Below are positions 3,377 through 14,867 of a stretch of 14,867 bases of DNA, piece by piece. The notes beneath the pieces were generated by a model that saw nothing but the letters and a program-made list of their open reading frames with translations, made no database searches and had not been told where the DNA came from. Position 1 is the first letter of the stretch; each line of letters begins with the position of its first letter. The stretch lies in the IMG/VR virus record IMGVR_UViG_2617270955_000010. One strand, 5' to 3'. The DNA comes from a virus. Lineage: Duplodnaviria; Heunggongvirae; Uroviricota; Caudoviricetes. The position numbers were made by a program, and so were the translations under genes.

Positions 3377-3549
3377 TGTCAGGAGTCCTGAATAGTGATT
3401 AGAGGAGTCACATGTCGGCATCAGTTTCCCGACGATGCGCATCCTCCGCCATCAGTCCCGGATGGCTTATCACTGACACAACAGCACCTTAGCGAATCGC
3501 GGGGCGCGACTCAGTAGCCTTGCCGTGTATTCATCACGGCGAGGTATTC
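3377..3549. promoter_or_regulatory. Divergent late promoter region between O (leftward) and P (rightward); expected site of Ogr-type activator-dependent late promoters
   Basis: Position only: the intergenic region between the divergently transcribed morphogenesis operons of a P2-like phage. I could not confidently pick out the TGT-N12-ACA activator dyads by eye. Confidence 0.45.
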
Positions 3550-5322
3550 ATGACCATCACCACAGACACCACTCTTTTACACGACCCGCGTCGTCAGGCG
3601 GCGCTGCTGTACTGGCAGGGGTTTTCCGTGCCGCAGATTGCCGCCATGTTGCAGATGAAACGTCCGACGGTGCAGAGCTGGAAACAGCGCGACGGCTGGG
3701 ACAGCGTTGCCCCCATCAGCCGTGTCGAAATGAGTCTGGAAGCGCGACTGACCCAGCTCATCATCAAACCGCAGAAAACCGGCGGTGACTTCAAGGAAAT
3801 TGACCTGCTGGGACGCCAGATTGAACGACTGGCACGGGTAAACCGCTACAGTCAGACCGGCAACGAGGCAGACCTTAATCCGAACGTCGCTAACCGCAAC
3901 AAAGGCGGGCGTCGCAAACCGAAAAAGAATTTTTTCAGTGACGAGGCCATCGAAAAGCTGGAGCAGATTTTCTTTGAGCAGTCTTTCGACTATCAGTTGC
4001 ACTGGTATCGCGCCGGGCTTGAGCACCGCATCCGCGATATCCTGAAATCCCGCCAGATTGGCGCGACGTTTTATTTTTCCCGCGAGGCGCTGCTGCGCGC
4101 CCTGAAAACCGGTCATAACCAGATTTTTCTGTCGGCCAGTAAAACGCAGGCGTATGTGTTCCGCGAATACATCATCGCCTTTGCCCGGCTGGTTGACGTT
4201 GACCTGACCGGTGACCCGATTGTCCTGGGCAATAACGGCGCAAAACTGATTTTTCTCGGCACCAACTCCAACACCGCACAGAGCCATAACGGCGACCTGT
4301 ACGTCGACGAGATTTTCTGGATCCCGAATTTTCAGGTACTGCGTAAGGTGGCATCAGGTATGGCCTCACAGAGTCACCTGCGCTCGACCTATTTCTCCAC
4401 CCCGTCCACGCTGGCGCACGACGCCTACCCGTTCTGGTCGGGTGAACTGTTCAACCGGGGACGCGCCAGCGCCGCCGAACGCGTGGAAATCGACGTCAGT
4501 CATAACGCCCTTGCCGGAGGTCTTCTCTGTGCGGACGGCCAGTGGCGGCAGATTGTCACCATTGAGGACGCCCTGAAAGGCGGCTGCACGCTGTTCGACA
4601 TTGAGCAGCTCAAACGTGAAAACAGCGCCGACGATTTTAAAAACCTGTTCATGTGTGAATTTGTTGACGACAAGGCGTCGGTGTTCCCGTTCGAGGAGCT
4701 GCAACGCTGCATGGTCGACACGCTGGAAGAATGGGAAGACTATGCGCCGTTTGCCGCCAATCCGTTCGGCTCCCGCCCGGTATGGATTGGTTACGACCCG
4801 TCACACCGTGGCGACAGCGCCGGATGCGTGGTACTGGCACCGCCGGTGGTGGCCGGTGGCAAATTCAGAATACTTGAGCGTCACCAGTGGAAAGGCATGG
4901 ACTTTGCCACCCAGGCGGAATCCATCCGCAAACTCACCGAAAAATATAACGTCGAATACATCGGTATTGATGCCACCGGCCTCGGTGTCGGCGTGTTCCA
5001 GCTCGTGCGCTCGTTCTATCCCGCCGCGCGCGATATCCGCTACACACCGGAAATGAAAACCGCAATGGTGCTCAAGGCAAAAGACGTTATCCGTCGTGGC
5101 TGTCTGGAATATGACGTCAGCGCCACCGACATCACCAGCTCGTTTATGGCTATCCGCAAGACCATGACCAGCAGCGGACGCAGCGCCACCTATGAGGCCA
5201 GCCGCAGCGAGGAAGCCAGCCACGCCGACCTCGCCTGGGCGACCATGCACGCCCTGTTAAATGAGCCACTCACCGCCGGTATCAGCACCCCGCTGACATC
5301 CACCATTCTGGAGTTTTACTGA
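3550..5322 (+). CDS. P: P2-type terminase large (ATPase) subunit gpP
   Basis: 590 aa from the ATG at 3550 (MTITTDTTLLHDPRRQAALLYWQGFSVPQIAAM...), preceded by GAGG. The longer ORF from 3520 adds 10 residues. The stop overlaps the Q start (ATGA). Confidence 0.93.
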   Translation: MTITTDTTLLHDPRRQAALLYWQGFSVPQIAAMLQMKRPTVQSWKQRDGWDSVAPISRVEMSLEARLTQLIIKPQKTGGDFKEIDLLGRQIERLARVNRYSQTGNEADLNPNVANRNKGGRRKPKKNFFSDEAIEKLEQIFFEQSFDYQLHWYRAGLEHRIRDILKSRQIGATFYFSREALLRALKTGHNQIFLSASKTQAYVFREYIIAFARLVDVDLTGDPIVLGNNGAKLIFLGTNSNTAQSHNGDLYVDEIFWIPNFQVLRKVASGMASQSHLRSTYFSTPSTLAHDAYPFWSGELFNRGRASAAERVEIDVSHNALAGGLLCADGQWRQIVTIEDALKGGCTLFDIEQLKRENSADDFKNLFMCEFVDDKASVFPFEELQRCMVDTLEEWEDYAPFAANPFGSRPVWIGYDPSHRGDSAGCVVLAPPVVAGGKFRILERHQWKGMDFATQAESIRKLTEKYNVEYIGIDATGLGVGVFQLVRSFYPAARDIRYTPEMKTAMVLKAKDVIRRGCLEYDVSATDITSSFMAIRKTMTSSGRSATYEASRSEEASHADLAWATMHALLNEPLTAGISTPLTSTILEFY

Positions 5323-6356
5323 TGAGCAAGAAAAAAGGGAAAACACCGCAACCTGCGGCAAAAAAAATGACTGCCAGCGCCCCGAAAATGGAGGCATTCA
5401 CCTTTGGTGAGCCGGTGCCGGTGCTCGACCGCCGTGACATTCTGGATTACGTCGAATGCATCAGTAACGGCAGATGGTATGAGCCGCCGGTCAGCTTTAC
5501 CGGTCTGGCAAAAAGCCTGCGTGCTGCCGTGCATCACAGCTCACCGATTTACGTCAAACGTAATATTCTGGCTTCAACGTTTATCCCGCATCCATGGCTT
5601 TCCCAGCAGGATTTCAGCCGCTTTGTGCTGGATTTTCTGGTATTTGGTAATGCATTTCTGGAAAAGCGTTACAGCACCACCGGTAAGGTCATCAGACTGG
5701 AAACCTCACCGGCAAAATATACCCGCCGTGGTGTGGAAGAGGATATTTACTGGTGGGTGCCGTCCTTCAACGAGCCGACAGCCTTCGCGCCCGGCTCCGT
5801 GTTTCACCTGCTGGAGCCGGATATTAATCAGGAGCTGTACGGCCTGCCGGAATATCTCAGCGCCCTTAACTCTGCCTGGCTGAATGAGTCGGCCACGCTG
5901 TTCCGCCGCAAGTATTACGAAAATGGCGCCCATGCCGGATACATCATGTACGTCACCGATGCCGTGCAGGATCGCAACGATATCGAAATGCTTCGCGAAA
6001 ACATGGTTAAGTCGAAAGGCCGCAACAACTTTAAAAATCTGTTTCTCTATGCGCCACAGGGGAAAGCTGACGGCATTAAAATTATCCCCCTCAGTGAAGT
6101 AGCGACGAAGGACGATTTTTTTAATATCAAAAAAGCCAGCGCCACTGACCTGCTGGACGCGCACCGCATCCCCTTTCAGTTGATGGGGGGCAAGCCGGAG
6201 AACGTCGGGTCGCTGGGTGATATTGAGAAAGTGGCAAAGGTCTTTGTCCGCAATGAGCTTATCCCGTTACAGGACAGGATCCGCGAGATAAACGGCTGGC
6301 TCGGTCAGGAGGTCATCCGCTTTAAAAACTACTCACTGGACACCGACAACGGCTGA
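5322..6356 (+). CDS. Q: P2-type portal protein gpQ
   Basis: 344 aa, MSKKKGKTPQPAAKK...; translationally coupled to P; followed by an intrinsic terminator and the cos site, as in P2. Confidence 0.93.
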   Translation: MSKKKGKTPQPAAKKMTASAPKMEAFTFGEPVPVLDRRDILDYVECISNGRWYEPPVSFTGLAKSLRAAVHHSSPIYVKRNILASTFIPHPWLSQQDFSRFVLDFLVFGNAFLEKRYSTTGKVIRLETSPAKYTRRGVEEDIYWWVPSFNEPTAFAPGSVFHLLEPDINQELYGLPEYLSALNSAWLNESATLFRRKYYENGAHAGYIMYVTDAVQDRNDIEMLRENMVKSKGRNNFKNLFLYAPQGKADGIKIIPLSEVATKDDFFNIKKASATDLLDAHRIPFQLMGGKPENVGSLGDIEKVAKVFVRNELIPLQDRIREINGWLGQEVIRFKNYSLDTDNG

Positions 6357-6544: not shown

Positions 6545-6661
6545 CGCCCGCTTCGTGGGACGATTTTAATGCAGTTGCCCGCATTAGCTGAATCCGCGCC
6601 AGAACAGACATTATGGATATGTCAATACGAACTTATTGACGTGCAAAATCATGCAATCAAG

Positions 6662-6694
6662 CGCAAAAAAAAACCGCCTTCAAAGAGGCGGTTT
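6662..6694 (-). terminator. Rho-independent terminator of the cargo operon
   Basis: On the minus strand: a 9-bp stem AAACCGCCT / AGGCGGTTT (6671..6679 and 6686..6694) with a 6-nt loop, followed by a run of about 9 U. It lies 16 nt downstream of the kinase-HIRAN stop codon. Confidence 0.75.
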
Positions 6695-6709
6695 ATGTTA
6701 TCCCATTGA

Positions 6710-8353
6710 TTAAGATCTACATTCAACTAAAAGGTACACTAATGGACGTTCTGGCGTCCCATTCTTCTTTGCAACAAAAGCAGATATTTTGTGTTTTGCT
6801 ATTTTTTGCTTGAGTTTTTTACATAACACTTTGTTTATATAACCAAGTTTCCCGCTCTCATGAACAACAGCTATAGCATGTGGATCAACCGGGTTATCCT
6901 CTTCAGGAACAAGCTTGACCAAATCACCGACCATTACTTTCGACAAATCAAGCCCTTCCTGATAACGAGTTCCTGCCACTTCAAAAAGAAGCTCACCTTC
7001 ACTATTAAGAATTTCTGGATCTGGCACCAAACAAAAACCATCGCCAGGTGATTTTGCTCCTGTATATCCTAACAGCGCAAAATCAGAGCCTTCAAATGGA
7101 TGGGGGAGCAAATGTTGAGCCAGATACTCAGCAAAGTCTTTTCTTTTCCGTGGTGGTAAACGCCGAACAAACGGGTCAAGCACGTTGTTCGTATGTTCTT
7201 CACTTTTCAGACTAAATGCGGGATGTCCTGCAAACCCTTTCTCTTGGGCTTTAGCATAATCTTCTGACTGAAAATGGTATGTGAAGACGTAGTTATCCCC
7301 TTGCTGACGATCAATCTGACCAACAACATAACGAGTACCGCCTGTGGGTGGCTGCCATGTAAGAAGCAACCGAGTAGGCTCCATTATTCTGTTTATAGTA
7401 CGCATATTTAGAATCAGTGATAACCTTAGGTATCTACGCCTCAATAAACGAATCGTCCAATCCGCTCGTTCCCTAGTGAACGGCACATCGGAGCTAATTT
7501 CGCAAAGTGAATCTATCTTGTCGACCAGTTCCTGAAAATCAAATTCAAGTCTCCGGGCCAAGTACGCTTTTGACTGCTCATCAAGAGCCAAATCCTGTAT
7601 AGAAGAAATATGACCTAATCGTTCATGCGTGTCTGCCCGATTCTTCCGCAAATGATGACAACCACGCTGTATGTATTCATCTACATTTTGATGGTTCCAT
7701 CCTCTGATCCTCTCTACATACCTTTCATGCCCCAAACTAGTACCATTATCGAAATATGGTGCGAGATATCCCTTCACTTTAGGTGGCGTTATGCCTGGTG
7801 CAGATTCAGGTACAAAAACAAAACCCCAATTCTCTTGGTGTCTATCACTATTACCGATGAGCGCATCAAAAAGCAGCATATCGTAAAGCCATTGGATCCA
7901 GTCTGGAGAGATCAGGCCGCGGATACTAAAAGCCCTACAAATTAAGCGTAGATCAACAAGGTTATGGTGTCTTCCGGAAGAGTCATCAAAATCCGATATC
8001 AACACATGAAAAAAATCAGACGCATGAACAAATAACTGGCTACTTTGATCGTAAAACCACTCAAGCAAAGCTCCATATTCGTATTCACCGTTCTCCATCA
8101 TTCTTCGCGCTGGCAATGCTTTAGGAACAGGAACGCCCATAACATCTCCAACTATATAAGCAACGGTTTCCATCCAGTACTGATCGGGATAAGCATCTCT
8201 TGAGAGTTTAAAAAGATAAGGCCATTCCGGTTTTATCCCCTCAGGAGCATCATTCGGTGACCAAAGCATTTTTTTATCCCTCGCTCCTCGAGGAAAAATG
8301 CCATGCTCATCATCTTTACGCCAACTAGTTACATCTATTAAATTGATATCCAT
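6710..8353 (-). CDS. HipA-family (HipA_C-like) Ser/Thr kinase core fused to a C-terminal HIRAN domain; candidate defence effector/sensor
   Basis: 547 aa. Kinase motifs: P-loop-like GARDKK (aa 23-28), catalytic loop LIGNSDRHQENWGF (D170/H172/N175; HipA DxHxxN motif), and metal-binding APYFDNGTS (D202; compare HipA AP-YD--S). C-terminal ~93 aa (aa ~455-547), ...AGTRYQEGLDLSKVMVGDLVKLVPEEDNPVDPHAIAVVHESGKLGYINKVL..., fits the HIRAN pattern (G-x-x-Y, L-x-x-E-x-x-N-P-x-D-x-x-A-I, G-Y-I). The start is 9 nt after the exonuclease stop (operon). Domain calls are from motif recognition only. Confidence 0.8.
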   Translation of the reverse strand: MDINLIDVTSWRKDDEHGIFPRGARDKKMLWSPNDAPEGIKPEWPYLFKLSRDAYPDQYWMETVAYIVGDVMGVPVPKALPARRMMENGEYEYGALLEWFYDQSSQLFVHASDFFHVLISDFDDSSGRHHNLVDLRLICRAFSIRGLISPDWIQWLYDMLLFDALIGNSDRHQENWGFVFVPESAPGITPPKVKGYLAPYFDNGTSLGHERYVERIRGWNHQNVDEYIQRGCHHLRKNRADTHERLGHISSIQDLALDEQSKAYLARRLEFDFQELVDKIDSLCEISSDVPFTRERADWTIRLLRRRYLRLSLILNMRTINRIMEPTRLLLTWQPPTGGTRYVVGQIDRQQGDNYVFTYHFQSEDYAKAQEKGFAGHPAFSLKSEEHTNNVLDPFVRRLPPRKRKDFAEYLAQHLLPHPFEGSDFALLGYTGAKSPGDGFCLVPDPEILNSEGELLFEVAGTRYQEGLDLSKVMVGDLVKLVPEEDNPVDPHAIAVVHESGKLGYINKVLCKKLKQKIAKHKISAFVAKKNGTPERPLVYLLVECRS

Positions 8354-8362
8354 ATCTTACGG

Positions 8363-8914
8363 TTACCCAGCTAATGCACGGAAAGCAGCACTAACATAAG
8401 CTACCTGAAACTTTGCATCTCGAAGCGCATGATGCGCATCAGTAACATTAATGGAAAAATTTGCCCTTACATCAATATTCTTAAGGCTTTTAGCTAGTTC
8501 AACGATGGTACGCACGTCTCGATCATTTCGAAAACGCCATGGGATATTTTGCGCATGTTTACGGTAAACCGCTGCCAATATAGCGTTATCAAAGCTTGCC
8601 CCATTCCCCCAAACTTGTACGTCATCGTTACTACGACTTCGTACAAATAGAGAAAATTCTTGTAAGGCTTCATGTAAGTCAACAGCAGACGGGTCATTAA
8701 AAACCGCCCTTGCAGAATCGCTTTGTATCATCCACCACTGTAAAGTTTTTGGGTCTACAAAACTATTTTCCAATGCAGATGATAGGGTTATAACTCTATA
8801 AAACTCATCCCCACACTTGCCAGTCAGAGGCTCAAAGAACACAGCGCCGATTGAAATCAAAGGAGCATCCATTGACACACCTAATGTTTCTATATCGAGC
8901 ATTAAATTATTCAT
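8363..8914 (-). CDS. DexA-like DEDDh 3'-5' exonuclease (DnaQ-fold)
   Basis: 183 aa. Exo I motif LDIETLG (D7, E9); Exo II motif WGNGASFDNAIL (D109); Exo III motif DAHHALRDA (H161-x4-D166). The overall pattern resembles phage T4 DexA (IDFETMG, GMSFDFPIL, HDSIHD). Strong SD GGAGG 5 nt upstream of the ATG. Confidence 0.85.
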   Translation of the reverse strand: MNNLMLDIETLGVSMDAPLISIGAVFFEPLTGKCGDEFYRVITLSSALENSFVDPKTLQWWMIQSDSARAVFNDPSAVDLHEALQEFSLFVRSRSNDDVQVWGNGASFDNAILAAVYRKHAQNIPWRFRNDRDVRTIVELAKSLKNIDVRANFSINVTDAHHALRDAKFQVAYVSAAFRALAG

Positions 8915-9054
8915 TTAACCTCCACCCCAGACATAGCTCAGGGAAACGTAACCTATTGAAATAACGAATCAAGTATTTGTCACATTCTATACTAAAACAT
9001 TCGAATTCCAAAACTTCAGCTTTTGCAACCCCTTACAAGTCAATTGATCCATAA

Positions 9055-9074
9055 TACTGTATACATACACAGTA
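9055..9074. promoter_or_regulatory. Putative LexA (SOS) operator upstream of the cargo operon
   Basis: TACTGTATACATACACAGTA has the CTGT-N8-ACAG pattern with an AT-rich centre and matches the E. coli LexA consensus TACTGTATATATATACAGTA at 18 of 20 positions. It lies 18 bp downstream of the A stop and about 140 bp upstream of the exonuclease ATG on the same transcriptional side. Confidence 0.5.
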
Positions 9075-9092
9075 CTACATTTGAAAAACAAA

Positions 9093-11369
9093 TCAAGGGA
9101 AATCATTAAAACCCGGCCAATCACAACAAGGCGGATAAACAAATTTTTTCATGTCATAAATAACTTCTGCCCCACGAGCCAGCGCCTCAAGCTCCCATCT
9201 CTGAGGCCTGATACCGTTCTGAGCAAGGTCAACGCGGATACGGGTGATTTGCAATCGTTCAGACCGGGTCAGTCTGGCCGATGGTGCAATTTCATGCGGT
9301 TTTAACGGGCTTCCGTTTCTTTGCCGACGATTTGGCGTTCTCAGCCCGTGTTTTAATGCGCCCCTGAGCGCCTTCACGACCTCCGGGTCATTCCATTCGA
9401 TAACACCATCATCAACCAGATTAAGCACTGCTGCGGCGTGCTCAGAAGGTGTGGGAACCGGTAACGAAGTATCACCACCGGTGAGCTTTCCACAGTTATT
9501 GACAGGACTCCGAGGCGCGGCGATGCCGCTTTTTAAAGTCAAAGGCTCAACGACCGGAACTTTCGGCACAATGCGCCAGTCCGTCGTTCTGGTGATATGA
9601 ATATGACGCGCGCCGAGATGCGGCGCGTAAATGCCGACCACTCTCTCGACCTCTTCCTCGTACTCGTTAACGTCATCCGACGGGCTACGGGCGACCCTGA
9701 CAGTCTGACAATCGCGCGGGACATTTGCCCCACCCTGCGCGCTGATATACAGCGCAAAATCGCCACTGTCTGCGGCGGCGCGTGCAGCCTCCACGCGTTC
9801 GTCAAATTCATCAGCAATGCTGACGCCGCGAGGCAATTTACGTAGCTCACGGTAAGCTCCCATTGTCGGCAGGCCAACCGTTTTAAATTGCGGGATGCGC
9901 CACGTTGACGCCCATGCGGTAACAGCCGCGGCAGTATCTTTCAGCGGTCTGCCGGTATCGTTATCGAGCTGACCATCCAGTGCATAGCCGTCGATATTTT
10001 TTGAAATGTATTTCGCGATATATCCCGCAGCACCGCCCCGGTTAAGGTGTTTTGCCTGAAAACGGTTTCGCGCGGCTCCTCTTTCGTCGCCATCCTCTTT
10101 GAGCGCATAGCGACGCATGATTTCGATAATCTGGTTACGCTGGCGTGGATTACAAAAAAGCATCATATGCCAGTGCGGCGTTCCGTCGTGGTGTGGCTCG
10201 ACGACTCGCAAACCGTAGACCTGTAAATCATTATCCTTGAATGCCGTGCGCATCAGGCTCCAGATACGGCAGAGATAACGCTGCGCATCCTTTGGATTAA
10301 ATGCCTCATCATTCCAGCCGTGATTAAGCTGGACGGTTTTATTTTCGCCTTTTCCAACCTGACGTGTCGGGTGATACTTTGACGGCGCGGTAAGCGTGAT
10401 AAACATCCCCACATCACCCTCTGAGGCGGCGTAACGCTCAATACCGGCAATGGTGTTCATCAGCTCCATCCGGCGAATTTCAGGATTAGAAATACTGCCC
10501 ATCACCTTACTGATAAGGTCGATGCGCTCGCCGGTTTCCCTGTTTTCAAGGTCACACGATTTAAGAAATTCCAGATTTGCCTGGCGGCGCGCACGCACAT
10601 CACGAATGGCATGTTTACTGGCATAAGGTGAACGGTCTTTATTGACCTCCCCGACAGCAATCAGTAACGCCTCATGCCAGCGCATACGCTGGCCTTTAAG
10701 CTGACTAATCCACCACTCATCGTTAAACAGGCGGGCAATGGCAGAATATGCCTGCCTCGTGGTCATCTGCCCTTTACGGTATTTTCTCCAGTAAAGCGGG
10801 GAAATATTGAAAGCACGTGCAGCGCCAGCAACATGACCATACAGGTGAGCCTGCGCCTCATCCGTAAACAGCGATTCTTTTTCGCCATGCGCATCCACCC
10901 AGGCATCGCAGAGTTCCCCATACATCATGAAAAGCTGCGATGAGATTCGGGCGGCAAACTTTTTCAGCTCCTTGTCATTCATCCCCGGCAGGCGCGCATA
11001 CTGGTCGCGCTCTGCCAGAAACAGCAACGACGCGTCAGTGTTCATTTCATGGCGCTGATTCACACGCTCAATGCGCGGCCATAAACGACGCTGAAAAGTG
11101 GATGTGAGGAAATAAAACCCGTGCACCGGGCTTTTATTGCGCCGGATGTAGTCATAGCGTGAAGTAAACAGCGAGCGCAAAAAGTAAGGCAGGCGGTTAA
11201 TCATGGATAAAACACCTTGCACCTGACGCATCTCGTCACGTGTAAGGGGTCTTTCGCGCCCGACAGCCTCGCGTGGCGCGTTCCACGCATAAGCACCGGT
11301 AAACGTCTTACCGGTGCCTGCGGCAAATGCTGACGGAGGGACAAAACGCCCGGAGGCTTTAACGGCCAT
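9093..11369 (-). CDS. A: P2-type replication initiation protein gpA (rolling-circle endonuclease)
   Basis: 758 aa from MAVKASGRFVPPSAFAAGTGK..., the N-terminus I recall for P2 gpA. The ORF track extends 14 codons further to 11411, which is a possible alternative start. HUH-like motif TPHWHMMLF and paired catalytic tyrosines GYIAKYISK (Y-x3-Y). Confidence 0.93.
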   Translation of the reverse strand: MAVKASGRFVPPSAFAAGTGKTFTGAYAWNAPREAVGRERPLTRDEMRQVQGVLSMINRLPYFLRSLFTSRYDYIRRNKSPVHGFYFLTSTFQRRLWPRIERVNQRHEMNTDASLLFLAERDQYARLPGMNDKELKKFAARISSQLFMMYGELCDAWVDAHGEKESLFTDEAQAHLYGHVAGAARAFNISPLYWRKYRKGQMTTRQAYSAIARLFNDEWWISQLKGQRMRWHEALLIAVGEVNKDRSPYASKHAIRDVRARRQANLEFLKSCDLENRETGERIDLISKVMGSISNPEIRRMELMNTIAGIERYAASEGDVGMFITLTAPSKYHPTRQVGKGENKTVQLNHGWNDEAFNPKDAQRYLCRIWSLMRTAFKDNDLQVYGLRVVEPHHDGTPHWHMMLFCNPRQRNQIIEIMRRYALKEDGDERGAARNRFQAKHLNRGGAAGYIAKYISKNIDGYALDGQLDNDTGRPLKDTAAAVTAWASTWRIPQFKTVGLPTMGAYRELRKLPRGVSIADEFDERVEAARAAADSGDFALYISAQGGANVPRDCQTVRVARSPSDDVNEYEEEVERVVGIYAPHLGARHIHITRTTDWRIVPKVPVVEPLTLKSGIAAPRSPVNNCGKLTGGDTSLPVPTPSEHAAAVLNLVDDGVIEWNDPEVVKALRGALKHGLRTPNRRQRNGSPLKPHEIAPSARLTRSERLQITRIRVDLAQNGIRPQRWELEALARGAEVIYDMKKFVYPPCCDWPGFNDFP

Positions 11370-11634
11370 ATGAGCCAAAAGCCTCTGAACAACGCTTGCT
11401 GAGTTGCTCAACCTGCGCGTTTAAATCAGCAAAAGACTTTGCGCTTCCGGTCAGAATATCGTGATGCATCAGGCCGGAAACGAGCTGGCTTAATTTCGGG
11501 TAATAACCAACCACCGCCAGCCATTCCTGACCGGCGTTTTTACCGCTTTCAGCTCTCTTTTTCTCGTGGAGAATAAACTGAAAGCTGTCACTGGTAACGA
11601 CATAACGTTCGCCAATTTCAATACGAATACTCAT
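11359..11634 (-). CDS. P2 orf83-like small early protein
   Basis: 91 aa, the same size and position as P2 orf83 immediately upstream of A; overlaps the A start by 11 nt. Confidence 0.75.
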   Translation of the reverse strand: MSIRIEIGERYVVTSDSFQFILHEKKRAESGKNAGQEWLAVVGYYPKLSQLVSGLMHHDILTGSAKSFADLNAQVEQLSKRCSEAFGSYGR

Positions 11635-13114: not shown

Positions 13115-13387
13115 TCACAACCCCATCCACAAAAGCCATGCATCACGCTGTTCAACCGGTCGGTTATAAAACGCCTCACGTACAGCGCGATTAAACTCAG
13201 GAATGAAAACCCATTTTTCACCGGCACGAGCCTTCGGTTTGCAAGGATCACGCAATTCAATAATTGGTAATTTATTTGCCTTCACCATTTCACTGACAGC
13301 TGTCTTTGGCTTCCCTAATAAATCAGCAAATTTATCCACATGAACCGCATCAAGCGGATACTGAATCACATAATTTTCAGCGTCCAT
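13115..13387 (-). CDS. cox: Cox-like excisionase / early-promoter repressor
   Basis: 90 aa from the second ATG (MDAENYVIQYPLDAVHVDKFADLLGKPKTAVSEMVKANKLPIIEL...), preceded by GAGGG. First gene of the early operon, divergent from C. Resembles P2 Cox in size and pattern (...LPVI...AGE.WV..P.....WL.W.GL). Confidence 0.8.
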   Translation of the reverse strand: MDAENYVIQYPLDAVHVDKFADLLGKPKTAVSEMVKANKLPIIELRDPCKPKARAGEKWVFIPEFNRAVREAFYNRPVEQRDAWLLWMGL

Positions 13388-13523
13388 ATATGGTACCCTC
13401 ATAGGATCCAGCCCTTTCTAAACCACTCAAAACCGTTTAGACGCTGGTTTATTCTCAAATCAATGGAACCTATATAGGTTCCAGTTTTGAGGGAATTTAG
13501 TCCCTATATAGGCACCATGTCAA
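13388..13523. promoter_or_regulatory. Lysogeny/lysis switch region (Pe/Pc promoters and operators) between cox and C
   Basis: 136-bp intergenic region between the divergent cox and C genes, containing two copies of the palindromic core CCTATATAGG with TATATA -10-like hexamers. Confidence 0.6.
13465..13482. repeat. Perfect 18-bp palindrome GGAACCTATATAGGTTCC (candidate operator), with a second copy of the 10-bp core at 13503..13512
   Basis: Read directly in the sequence; the core CCTATATAGG is self-complementary and occurs twice, 34 bp apart, just upstream of the C start. Confidence 0.7.
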
Positions 13524-13817
13524 ATGAAATTAAGCGAAAAGATTAAGGCCTTGCGTGAGGCTGAAGGGCTAAGCCAATCAAAATTCTGTGAAATCATAGA
13601 GTTACCGCTAAGCACACTTAAAAAATATGAAGGAGGAAACTTTGAACCCGGTGGCACAGCTTTGCTAAAAATCACTATGCATCCCACATTCCAAAAATAT
13701 GCTCTATGGCTTATGACAGATAAAACCGCGCCGGACGCAGGACAAATCGCACCGGCTCTCGCGCACATTGGGCCAGAGTCAACAGAGTCCAACCACTCCG
13801 CGAAAAGGATTGGCTAA
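13524..13817 (+). CDS. C: P2 C-type immunity repressor
   Basis: 97 aa. The C-terminal half ...FQKYALWLMTDKTAPDAGQIAPALAHIGPE... closely resembles P2 C (...FTKYTLWFMTNQIAPESGQIAPALAHFG...). Position immediately upstream of int. Confidence 0.85.
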   Translation: MKLSEKIKALREAEGLSQSKFCEIIELPLSTLKKYEGGNFEPGGTALLKITMHPTFQKYALWLMTDKTAPDAGQIAPALAHIGPESTESNHSAKRIG

Positions 13818-13886
13818 CTCTATATAAAGATTACATTTTCACCATTTGCTACCAAGATGGTGAATACAGCGCCGGAGGGCTTTCTT

Positions 13887-14867
13887 ATGGCAATTAAGAA
13901 GCTCGATGATGGTCGCTATGAAGTGGACATTAGACCTCGCGGTCGCGACGGAAAACGCATCCGCAGGAAATTCGAAAGAAAAGCTGAAGCACTAGCATTT
14001 GAGCGATACACAATCGCCAATGCCAGTCAGAAAGAATGGGGAGGCCAGCGAGCAGACCGCCGGACTTTGAGTGAGTTGCTGGACATCTGGTGGAAATATC
14101 ACGGGCAAAACCACGAGCATGGAACAAAAGAGTTTAATCATCTACTCAAAACCATCAGCGGCATAGGTGATATACCAGTGAGCAGGATGAGCAAAAGGGC
14201 TTTGATGGATTATCGTTCCATGCGACTACGTGATGGTATCAGTGCCGCAACGATAAACCGTGACATGTACCGATTATCCGGCATGTTCACAAAATTAATT
14301 CAATTGGATGAATTTTCCGGGCAACACCCAATTCACGGACTGCCGCCACTGGCGGAGGCCAACCCTGAAATGACGTTCCTGGAAAAAGCAGAAATCGAAA
14401 AACTGTTAAATGTTTTGGCTGGTGATGACTTACTTGTCGCGCTTTTATGTCTGAGCACTGGAGGAAGATGGACGGAAGTTGCCACGCTAAAACCAGCACA
14501 GATTACAAATTGCAGGGTTACCTTCCTGAAAACCAAAAACGGTAAAAAGCGAACCGTGCCGATTTCTGAGGAACTGGAGAAAAAAGTTAAAGAGGAGGCC
14601 AGCGCCAAATTATTCAAAGTTGATTATGAGAAATTTTGCGGGATTTTACGCAGAGTGAAACCTGATATACCACCCAATCAGGCAACCCACATCCTGCGGC
14701 ATACATTCGCAAGCCATTTCATGATGAATGGGGGCAATATAATCGCACTGCAACAGATTCTGGGACATGCGAGCATTCAGCAGACGATGGCCTATGCGCA
14801 CCTTGCGCCTGACTATCTGCAAAATGCCGTCGCTCTGAATCCACTAAAAGGCGGAGTGACGTTATAA
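13887..14867 (+). CDS. int: P2-type tyrosine integrase
   Basis: 326 aa from MAIKKLDDGRYEVDIRPRGRDGKRIRRKF..., with GGAGGG 8 nt upstream. The ORF track starts 10 codons earlier at 13857. Tyrosine-recombinase box motifs HILRHTFASH and catalytic tyrosine in MAYAHL. The stop codon is the last triplet of the window. Confidence 0.93.
   Translation: MAIKKLDDGRYEVDIRPRGRDGKRIRRKFERKAEALAFERYTIANASQKEWGGQRADRRTLSELLDIWWKYHGQNHEHGTKEFNHLLKTISGIGDIPVSRMSKRALMDYRSMRLRDGISAATINRDMYRLSGMFTKLIQLDEFSGQHPIHGLPPLAEANPEMTFLEKAEIEKLLNVLAGDDLLVALLCLSTGGRWTEVATLKPAQITNCRVTFLKTKNGKKRTVPISEELEKKVKEEASAKLFKVDYEKFCGILRRVKPDIPPNQATHILRHTFASHFMMNGGNIIALQQILGHASIQQTMAYAHLAPDYLQNAVALNPLKGGVTL

Follow-up and report, generated by a model that had tools for sequence, protein, structure and literature searches.

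Within the window, the 14,867-nt stretch of DNA analyzed here, a near-consensus LexA box is located between the replication gene A (gpA) of a P2-like (Peduoviridae) prophage, reversed relative to the P2 map, and a two-gene cargo operon encoding a DEDDh 3'-5' exonuclease and a HipL-type kinase. Comparison of this region with related loci suggests that the box probably serves as operator for a sigma-70 promoter that LexA represses, one of the p95 type found in phage 186 that drives the exonuclease-hipL operon. Transcription from this predicted promoter, TTGATT-16-TACTGT, would read along the minus strand into the exonuclease gene (8914-8363) and hipL (8353-6710), and would end at a terminator-like hairpin (6694-6671). 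In the undamaged lysogen, LexA situated on the -10 element and the start site would block the cargo promoter; following DNA damage, RecA-stimulated cleavage of LexA would free the promoter and cargo expression would rise. Given a P2-type C repressor and the absence of a Tum protein, the SOS signal would reach the cargo instead of triggering prophage induction. The original prediction had tentatively placed the cargo operon, rather than prophage induction, under DNA-damage control, a proposal supported by comparative evidence that includes the quality of the box, the lack of Tum and the type of the C repressor. Throughout, it is from sequence comparison that we infer LexA binding, the start site, repression and the effect of the induced cargo.

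Table 1. Predicted genes and regulatory features of the window (positions in nt).
Feature	Coordinates	Strand	Remarks
Terminase P	3520-5322	+	
Portal Q	5322-6356	+	
Cargo-specific DNA, gpQ/cos-gpA variable hotspot	approx. 6579-9108		contains LexA box and -35
Intrinsic terminator-like hairpin and T-run	6671-6694	-	16 nt past hipL stop
Second cargo gene, 547-aa HipL-type kinase	6710-8353	-	Pfam HipA_C, Couple_hipA, HIRAN; PADLOC PDC-M03A/B
First cargo gene, 183-aa Rv2179c-like DEDDh 3'-5' exonuclease	8363-8914	-	Pfam PF16473, E=6.8e-57
Second, box-independent promoter candidate, TTGGAA-16-TAGAAT	8984-9011	-	9/12 consensus match; inside conserved leader
LexA (SOS) box, predicted	9055-9074	-	consensus match, HI, conservation; coding (-) strand reads TACTGTGTATGTATACAGTA
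Predicted -10, TACTGT	9069-9074	-	first hexamer of LexA box; geometry as annotated for 186 p95; best box-overlapping sigma-70 pairing
Predicted -35, TTGATT	9091-9096	-	16 nt upstream of -10; overlaps gpA stop codon (9095-9093)
Replication gene A (gpA)	9093-11411	-	after B and several small ORFs
cox	13115-13402	-	
P2-type repressor C	13524-13817	+	43% identical to P2 C over full length, E=7e-30
int	13857-14867	+	

Sequence and position of the LexA box

The sequence TACTGTATACATACACAGTA at positions 9055-9074 agrees with the LexA consensus TACTGTATATATATACAGTA at 18 of 20 positions, with two mismatches, and retains a perfect copy of the 16-mer core, CTGT-N8-ACAG, within this 20-mer palindrome. 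When the whole window was scanned, the box was the sole match to the consensus at three or fewer mismatches, and not one of 200 dinucleotide shuffles contained any such match. The box has a heterology index (HI), for which lower values are better, of approximately 3.7, compared to 5.0 for recA and 5.1 for sulA in the same matrix, all values being approximate since the matrix is an approximate reconstruction based on 27 SOS boxes of E. coli. For comparison, Salmonella boxes upstream of damage-induced genes span HI values of 1.5-13 (PMC8072944). An HI scan of the window and of the complete phage 899 returned this box as the only strong LexA site, the runner-up in the window scoring 10.2. That runner-up, TCCTGTATATCCTAACAGCG, is located inside hipL (7058-7077) and was considered and rejected as a second operator: its HI decays to 12.8-22 in relatives, and it is therefore probably a coincidence of coding sequence.

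The box is contained in the 178-nt gap separating the gpA stop codon (TGA, 9095-9093, minus strand) from the exonuclease ATG at 8914, beginning 18 nt past the former and 140 nt ahead of the latter. Both the near-consensus nature of the site and its placement between these two genes had been put forward in the original prediction, as had scoring by a LexA matrix or heterology index; each is borne out by the match of 18 in 20, the shuffles and an HI that, within the approximation of the matrix, is the best in the window.

Conservation of the box in related loci

Relatives were gathered by exonuclease and HipL searches of viral, genome and metagenome contigs, yielding approximately 25 related Peduoviridae loci with the same cargo, that is, a DEDDh exonuclease together with a HipL or HipI/HipN kinase with HIRAN. 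In every such locus with enough upstream DNA, one strong box is found between gpA and the exonuclease gene, the exception being L154, in which a pair of overlapping weaker sites (HI 7.5) is present instead. The box-bearing loci, namely L008 (the same as L055), L013 (Serratia sp. H1w), L012 (the same as L068), L056-L069, L151-L157, L161 and L163, range in identity from 40 to 90% for the exonuclease and from 42 to 90% for the kinase. These loci provide 21 distinct box sequences, in all 21 of which CTG at positions 3-5 and CAG at positions 16-18 are invariant; variation in the central spacer is free, and the invariant positions are those of the consensus half-sites. Among the window and its close relatives L152 and L055, 18 of the 20 box positions are invariant, as compared to 15 of 40 flanking positions (Fisher p=9e-5).

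Such conservation bears upon a set of readings that we consider very improbable, according to which the box would control a transcript of the plus strand (either antisense to the 3' end of gpA or covering a 74-codon ORF at 9081-9305), would have arisen as a chance palindrome, or would be the site of some other protein. A chance palindrome is excluded by the shuffles and by conservation across the 21 variants, and the positions conserved are those of the consensus half-sites, CTG and CAG. The plus-strand possibility draws on a CATAAT hexamer (9050-9055, plus strand) that abuts the box and on the existence of the 74-aa ORF on that strand, but no usable -35 is found 16-18 nt from CATAAT, and the genes past the box (tum, exonuclease) are on the gpA strand in all relatives. 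Plus-strand promoters adjoining the box were likewise sought in the window and rejected for want of acceptable partner hexamers.

Linkage of the box to the cargo cassette

Analysis of 80 viral contigs with gpA at least 96% identical to that of the window revealed a box after gpA in two, both of which possess this cargo; the remaining 78 near-identical backbones contain different cargo and no box after gpA. Because so many of these near-identical backbones are without it, the box is seen to travel with the cargo cassette. Homology to the 78 other P2-type backbones ends at 6573-6614 on the gpQ side and at approximately 9109 on the gpA side, and the box, the -35 element and the last five gpA codons are therefore part of the mobile cassette and not of the P2 backbone. 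Linkage of the box to that backbone was rejected on the same counts, P2 itself being devoid of it, with no site between int and cos scoring an HI of 10 or lower.

Two additional associations were considered and rejected. Firstly, the box is not linked to the exonuclease family generally, as no strong box lies directly upstream of the gene in 36 genome and four viral loci in which an exonuclease homolog occurs in contexts other than this cassette, e.g., lambdoid prophages. Secondly, it is not general to HipL: approximately 70 metagenomic homologs outside the Peduoviridae (L158-L230) are without the exonuclease or a convincing box, the motifs sought upstream of them being those of the gamma-, Cheo- and alpha-type, so that other LexA motifs could escape on these contigs. 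Elsewhere in the hotspot, two P2-type loci with other cargo (L073 and L118) contain a moderate LexA-like sequence, TACTGGACTTATACACAGTG, with an HI of 7.1 at position 6700, approximately 900 nt downstream of gpA, and other hotspot cargos may be SOS-linked too.

Predicted promoter elements and leader upstream of the exonuclease gene

While the -35/-10 pairing could not be fixed in the original prediction, the most likely arrangement is TTGATT (9096-9091) separated by 16 nt from TACTGT (9074-9069), which mirrors the annotation of 186 p95. This predicted promoter is of moderate quality, with the -35 matching consensus at 4/6 positions and the -10 at 3/6, T1, A2 and T6 being present in the latter; in the same rough sigma-70 matrix the pairing scores 8.5 and 186 p95 scores 7.5. 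At the same spacing, the -35 hexamer is TTGATT in L152 and TTGAAT in L055, a conservation that constitutes weak evidence because the gpA stop codon constrains part of the element. A promoter with its -35 inside the box, of the style described below for L155, was rejected in the window, where no acceptable partner hexamer was found.

A second, box-independent promoter candidate, TTGGAA-16-TAGAAT, is a better match to consensus than the box-overlapping pairing and is positioned 45-70 nt downstream of the box. Should this candidate dominate, the box would lie near -88 and control by LexA would be weak. Alternatively, the candidate may supply basal, LexA-independent expression. As it is nearer to the exonuclease gene, SOS control of the operon may be partial. 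The candidate resides in a leader of approximately 120 nt (8915-9036) in which the window, L152 and L055 share approximately 90% identity, compared to 83% overall for coding DNA, and that is more conserved among these close relatives than is the DNA adjoining the box. A structured RNA or riboswitch in the leader was rejected (fold z=0.6, no Rfam match); the leader could contain an operator for autoregulation. L012 contains two copies of a motif related to it, GGAAT(TCG)AATGTT..AGTAT, one near 2732 and the other near 2895.

In the window, the stretch from the box to the exonuclease gene contains no terminator-like site. Given that there is also no terminator between gpA and the exonuclease gene, and that the box begins so shortly after the gpA stop, LexA could be envisaged as a roadblock or insulator whose main effect is to curb transcription running on from the early operon (Pe, cox-B-A) into a kinase gene that could be toxic, with SOS lifting the block and no dedicated promoter being fired. 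Locus L056 presents a terminator-like hairpin (2891-2910) ahead of its LexA box, suggesting that transcription of the early operon does not normally extend into the SOS operon. We nevertheless regard the roadblock as quite improbable, as there would be little read-through to block in a lysogen in which C represses Pe, and as the homologous element of 186 is annotated as a promoter. Such an effect is compatible with a LexA-repressed promoter and may act in addition to it.

Relationship to the tum operon of phage 186

LexA control of p95-tum has long been known. In the record of phage 186 (U32222), p95 is composed of a -35 element TTCACA, an 18-nt spacer and a -10 element TACTGT that forms the first hexamer of the box TACTGTATGTTTATACAGTA, and it is followed by tum, the partial terminator t95a and orf97, a remark in the record stating that plasmid-expressed orf97 'blocks 186 infection'. 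For a P2-like prophage, that of E. coli HS, LexA-tum control of induction has been shown genetically (PMC12055606).

Among the relatives of the window cassette, the box lies 160-746 nt from the exonuclease ATG, and the long gaps contain small genes that start 10-90 nt past the box and occur in three forms: a single 160-aa ORF, found in L067 and 59% identical to 186 Tum; a TumA-like gene (approximately 60-70 aa) accompanied by a gene for a DinI-family TumB-like protein (Pfam DinI), as in phage PSP3; and the TumA-like gene by itself. In most relatives, tum is found directly past the box and is followed by the same exonuclease-kinase cargo. No convincing terminator was found between tum and exonuclease-hipL in these tum-carrying relatives, in which the exonuclease and hipL, to judge from gene order, are placed behind tum in the same SOS operon. 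By this comparison, the window box is the predicted counterpart of the p95 operator. The 186-like arrangement noted in the original prediction is thereby upheld, related phages having the same box before tum homologs and then the same cargo.

Several features are common to the window and 186. In both, the SOS promoter (predicted in the window) directly follows gene A and points the same way, within the variable region ahead of cos; in both, TACTGT as the first hexamer of the box serves as the -10, with the -35 16-18 nt upstream (a predicted role in the window); and in both, non-essential cargo is placed behind the SOS promoter (orf97 in 186). Despite these similarities, the window and phage 899 are without tum, the immunity repressor of the window is of the P2 C type and not CI as in 186, and the payload consists of the exonuclease and the HipL kinase, with no similarity to orf97 found. 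The cassette most likely derives from, or is sister to, the 'SOS operon' of tum-carrying Peduoviridae, with tum absent.

Tum-less lineages and the possibility of a relic operator

In the window, L152, L055/L013, L155 and L012/L068, the box and the exonuclease gene are not separated by any ORF of 35 aa or more. These tum-less variants represent at least three separately diverged cassette lineages (window/L152/L055, L155 and L068), the cassette of L155 being a different allele even though its gpA is 97% identical to that of the window. All tum-less lineages possess a strong box, with an HI of 3.1-5.7, on a predicted core promoter facing the exonuclease gene. In L152 and L055 the elements are arranged as in the window, with TTGATT or TTGAAT, respectively, 16 nt from TACTGT; in L155, TGTACA, inside the box, is 17 nt from TATAAT, a match to consensus at 10/12 positions plus the TG of an extended -10 (2686-2714); in L068, TTGACT is 17 nt from CATTGT, a -10 that abuts the box. 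The same operator thus appears to be used in at least three promoter geometries.

These lineages weigh upon the possibility that the box is a relic of a 186-type p95-tum unit from which tum was deleted as the cassette moved to P2-type phages, such that LexA may still bind with no consequential control and the operon would be expressed from the internal promoter at 9011-8984. That most relatives have tum between the box and the exonuclease gene is in keeping with such a history, as is the better-matching promoter downstream of the box. So too is the hypervariable stretch of 18 nt directly downstream of the box (9037-9054), at which only 2/18 positions are invariant among the window, L152 and L055, and which may be a scar of tum loss or exchange. 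Against a relic stand the retention of a strong box by tum-less variants of three or more lineages and the finding that the predicted LexA-contact bases are intact even as the flanks decay. In addition, each lineage has the box overlapping a predicted core promoter element that faces the exonuclease gene, with a different geometry each time, and the placement of LexA on the core promoter by every one of these geometries points to a maintained function rather than a decaying relic. We consequently judge the relic to be unlikely and the box to be, with good probability on these comparisons, a functional LexA operator controlling the exonuclease-hipL operon.

The exonuclease and the HipL kinase

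The DEDDh residues of the exonuclease (D7, E9, D109, H161 and D166) are invariant among homologs (alignment A2), and its nearest solved structure, to which the relation is distant, is the exodeoxyribonuclease 8KEL. The start of hipL is 9 nt past the exonuclease stop, no Peduoviridae locus examined separates the two genes, even where exonuclease identity falls to 40%, and the hairpin downstream of hipL is likely to mark the end of the operon. The HipL protein is composed of a HipA-like kinase core, a HipS-like domain and, at the C terminus, a HIRAN domain, an order that fits the description of the HipL family (PMC8262856). Pfam scores for HIRAN (41.2 bits) and Couple_hipA (26.7 bits) are above their cut-offs, and that for HipA_C (25.8 bits) is under its cut-off of 30.5. 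PADLOC assigns residues 4-308 to PDC-M03A (E=3.8e-31) and residues 325-545 to PDC-M03B, PDC-M03 being a candidate anti-phage defense system only. Two motifs, the catalytic-loop-like DRHQ(E/D)NWGF and FDNGTSLGHER, are kept in alignment A3. Members of the HipA family of kinases bring about growth arrest through phosphorylation of translation factors.

The cargo resembles known systems in part. The order of kinase core, HipS-like and HIRAN domains is that of the HipL family of Gerdes, Baerentsen and Brodersen (2021; PMC8262856), and a split form, HipI plus HipN as in the same study, is found in the homologous cassette of L012/L068. While HipL as described there is monocistronic, with no regulator named, hipL of the window comes second in an operon, preceded by the gene for a DEDDh exonuclease and by a LexA box. 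Similarly, in the DEDD diDNase-HipA-HIRAN clusters of Actinomycetes and Clostridia, a small DEDD-superfamily nuclease gene directly adjoins HipA- and HIRAN-domain genes on mobile elements (PMC11706625). The nucleases of those clusters are NrnC-like dinucleases, whereas that of the window is Rv2179c/DexA-like, and a LexA or SOS link is not reported for them. As DEDD nuclease-HipA-HIRAN clusters recur on mobile elements (PMC11706625), the nuclease-kinase partnership is probably functional.

HIRAN domains bind 3' DNA ends (reviewed in PMC8262856). A further and tentative possibility, which we think doubtful as it stands, is that the box, exonuclease and HipL form one SOS-licensed, DNA-end-sensing kinase system. 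Cleavage of LexA would supply the exonuclease and HipL proteins; the exonuclease and HIRAN would act on or read free 3' DNA ends, such as those of damaged forks or of invading or replicating phage; this would relieve the inhibition of the kinase by its own HipS-like domain; and translation or growth would then be arrested by the kinase, with abortive infection or a dormancy induced by damage as the outcome. In phages with tum, firing of the unit would coincide with prophage induction. SOS licensing of such a kinase is a coherent, though unproven, hypothesis.

Immunity and distribution of the prophage

The original prediction had also assigned a P2-type C repressor to the prophage, an assignment confirmed by 43% identity to P2 C (E=7e-30) and accompanied by the presence of cox. 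A search with 186 Tum (tblastn) returned no significant homolog in the window or in the complete phage 899, which is 98% identical to the window; the best match (E=0.031) covers 25 aa in L001 (12256-12330), far from the gpA-gpQ hotspot. A hidden Tum or DinI-like gene elsewhere in the phage was also rejected, no homolog being found in the window or phage 899. With no Tum, a P2-type C and Cox, the route by which 186 responds to SOS is therefore absent. The segment containing the C repressor and operator (13373-13745) gives no blastn alignment to phage 899, though its flanks are 96-98% identical, a pattern resembling an exchange of immunity regions between two phages that are otherwise nearly identical.

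Escherichia phage 899 (PV533660) and Yersinia phage GMG73 match the intergenic region at 100% identity, and 61 of 5,426 complete E. coli genomes, mostly from humans, contain it at 99% identity or more; because the matches in these 61 genomes are so nearly identical, E. coli offers no useful diversity for comparison. In approximately half of the 61 genomes, the match occurs at identical coordinates near base 2,000 (e.g., NZ_CP054214, 2070-4970), and coordinate 1 of those records therefore lies near the start of the prophage gpA gene. Assembly-rotation software probably took the phage replication gene for the chromosomal start gene in those records. At the other end of the window, positions 1-2388 are occupied by an IS21-family element (istA, 1-1542; istB, 1554-2303), and homology to phage 899 stops at window position 2389, corresponding to phage 899 position 29504, 75 nt into the major capsid gene gpN. 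With this element in gpN, the window prophage is apparently inactivated, the cargo operon being intact.

Significance

Chromosomal toxin modules repressed by LexA are known in E. coli and include tisB/istR, symE, dinQ, hokE, dinJ-yafQ and yafNO. The cargo resembles these modules in that a growth-arresting toxin is licensed by DNA damage, a predicted property in the case of the window. It differs from them in belonging to an unrelated family and in being phage-borne, with a candidate Ser/Thr kinase that possesses HipS-like (antitoxin-like) and DNA-3'-end-binding domains. No literature linking HIRAN or HipL with LexA, SOS or prophages was found in the library searched: the HipL study contains no mention of LexA, SOS or prophages (PMC8262856), and two papers on the P2 hotspot contain none of LexA, SOS or HipA. 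A p95-type operator directly driving HipL/exonuclease cargo in a tum-less phage of P2 immunity appears to be undescribed, as does the constant association of exonuclease-HipL cargo with a LexA box.

The association provides a first concrete regulatory lead for the HipL and HipI/N kinases, namely DNA damage via LexA, and one that fits the DNA-3'-end-binding HIRAN domain and the partnered 3'-5' exonuclease. If the cassette does form a DNA-end-sensing kinase system, it would represent SOS-gated phage cargo in a non-inducible prophage, and the HipL and HipI/N kinases would thereby gain their first proposed regulatory input, together with their first proposed activating ligand. Moreover, a prophage with a strong LexA box need not be one that SOS induces to lysis. 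The predictor PSOSP bases its SOS-dependent calls on the lowest heterology index found among promoter regions (PMC12527982), and predictors of this type would probably misclassify this P2-type, tum-less prophage. Cassettes of the P2 gpA-gpQ hotspot can, if the predicted promoter is real, bring their own stress-responsive promoter with them between phage backbones. Lastly, as the prophage is found in 61 of the 5,426 E. coli genomes, expression of a HipA-family kinase in those strains could be turned on by antibiotics that induce SOS, fluoroquinolones for example, an effect that would bear on tolerance and persistence.
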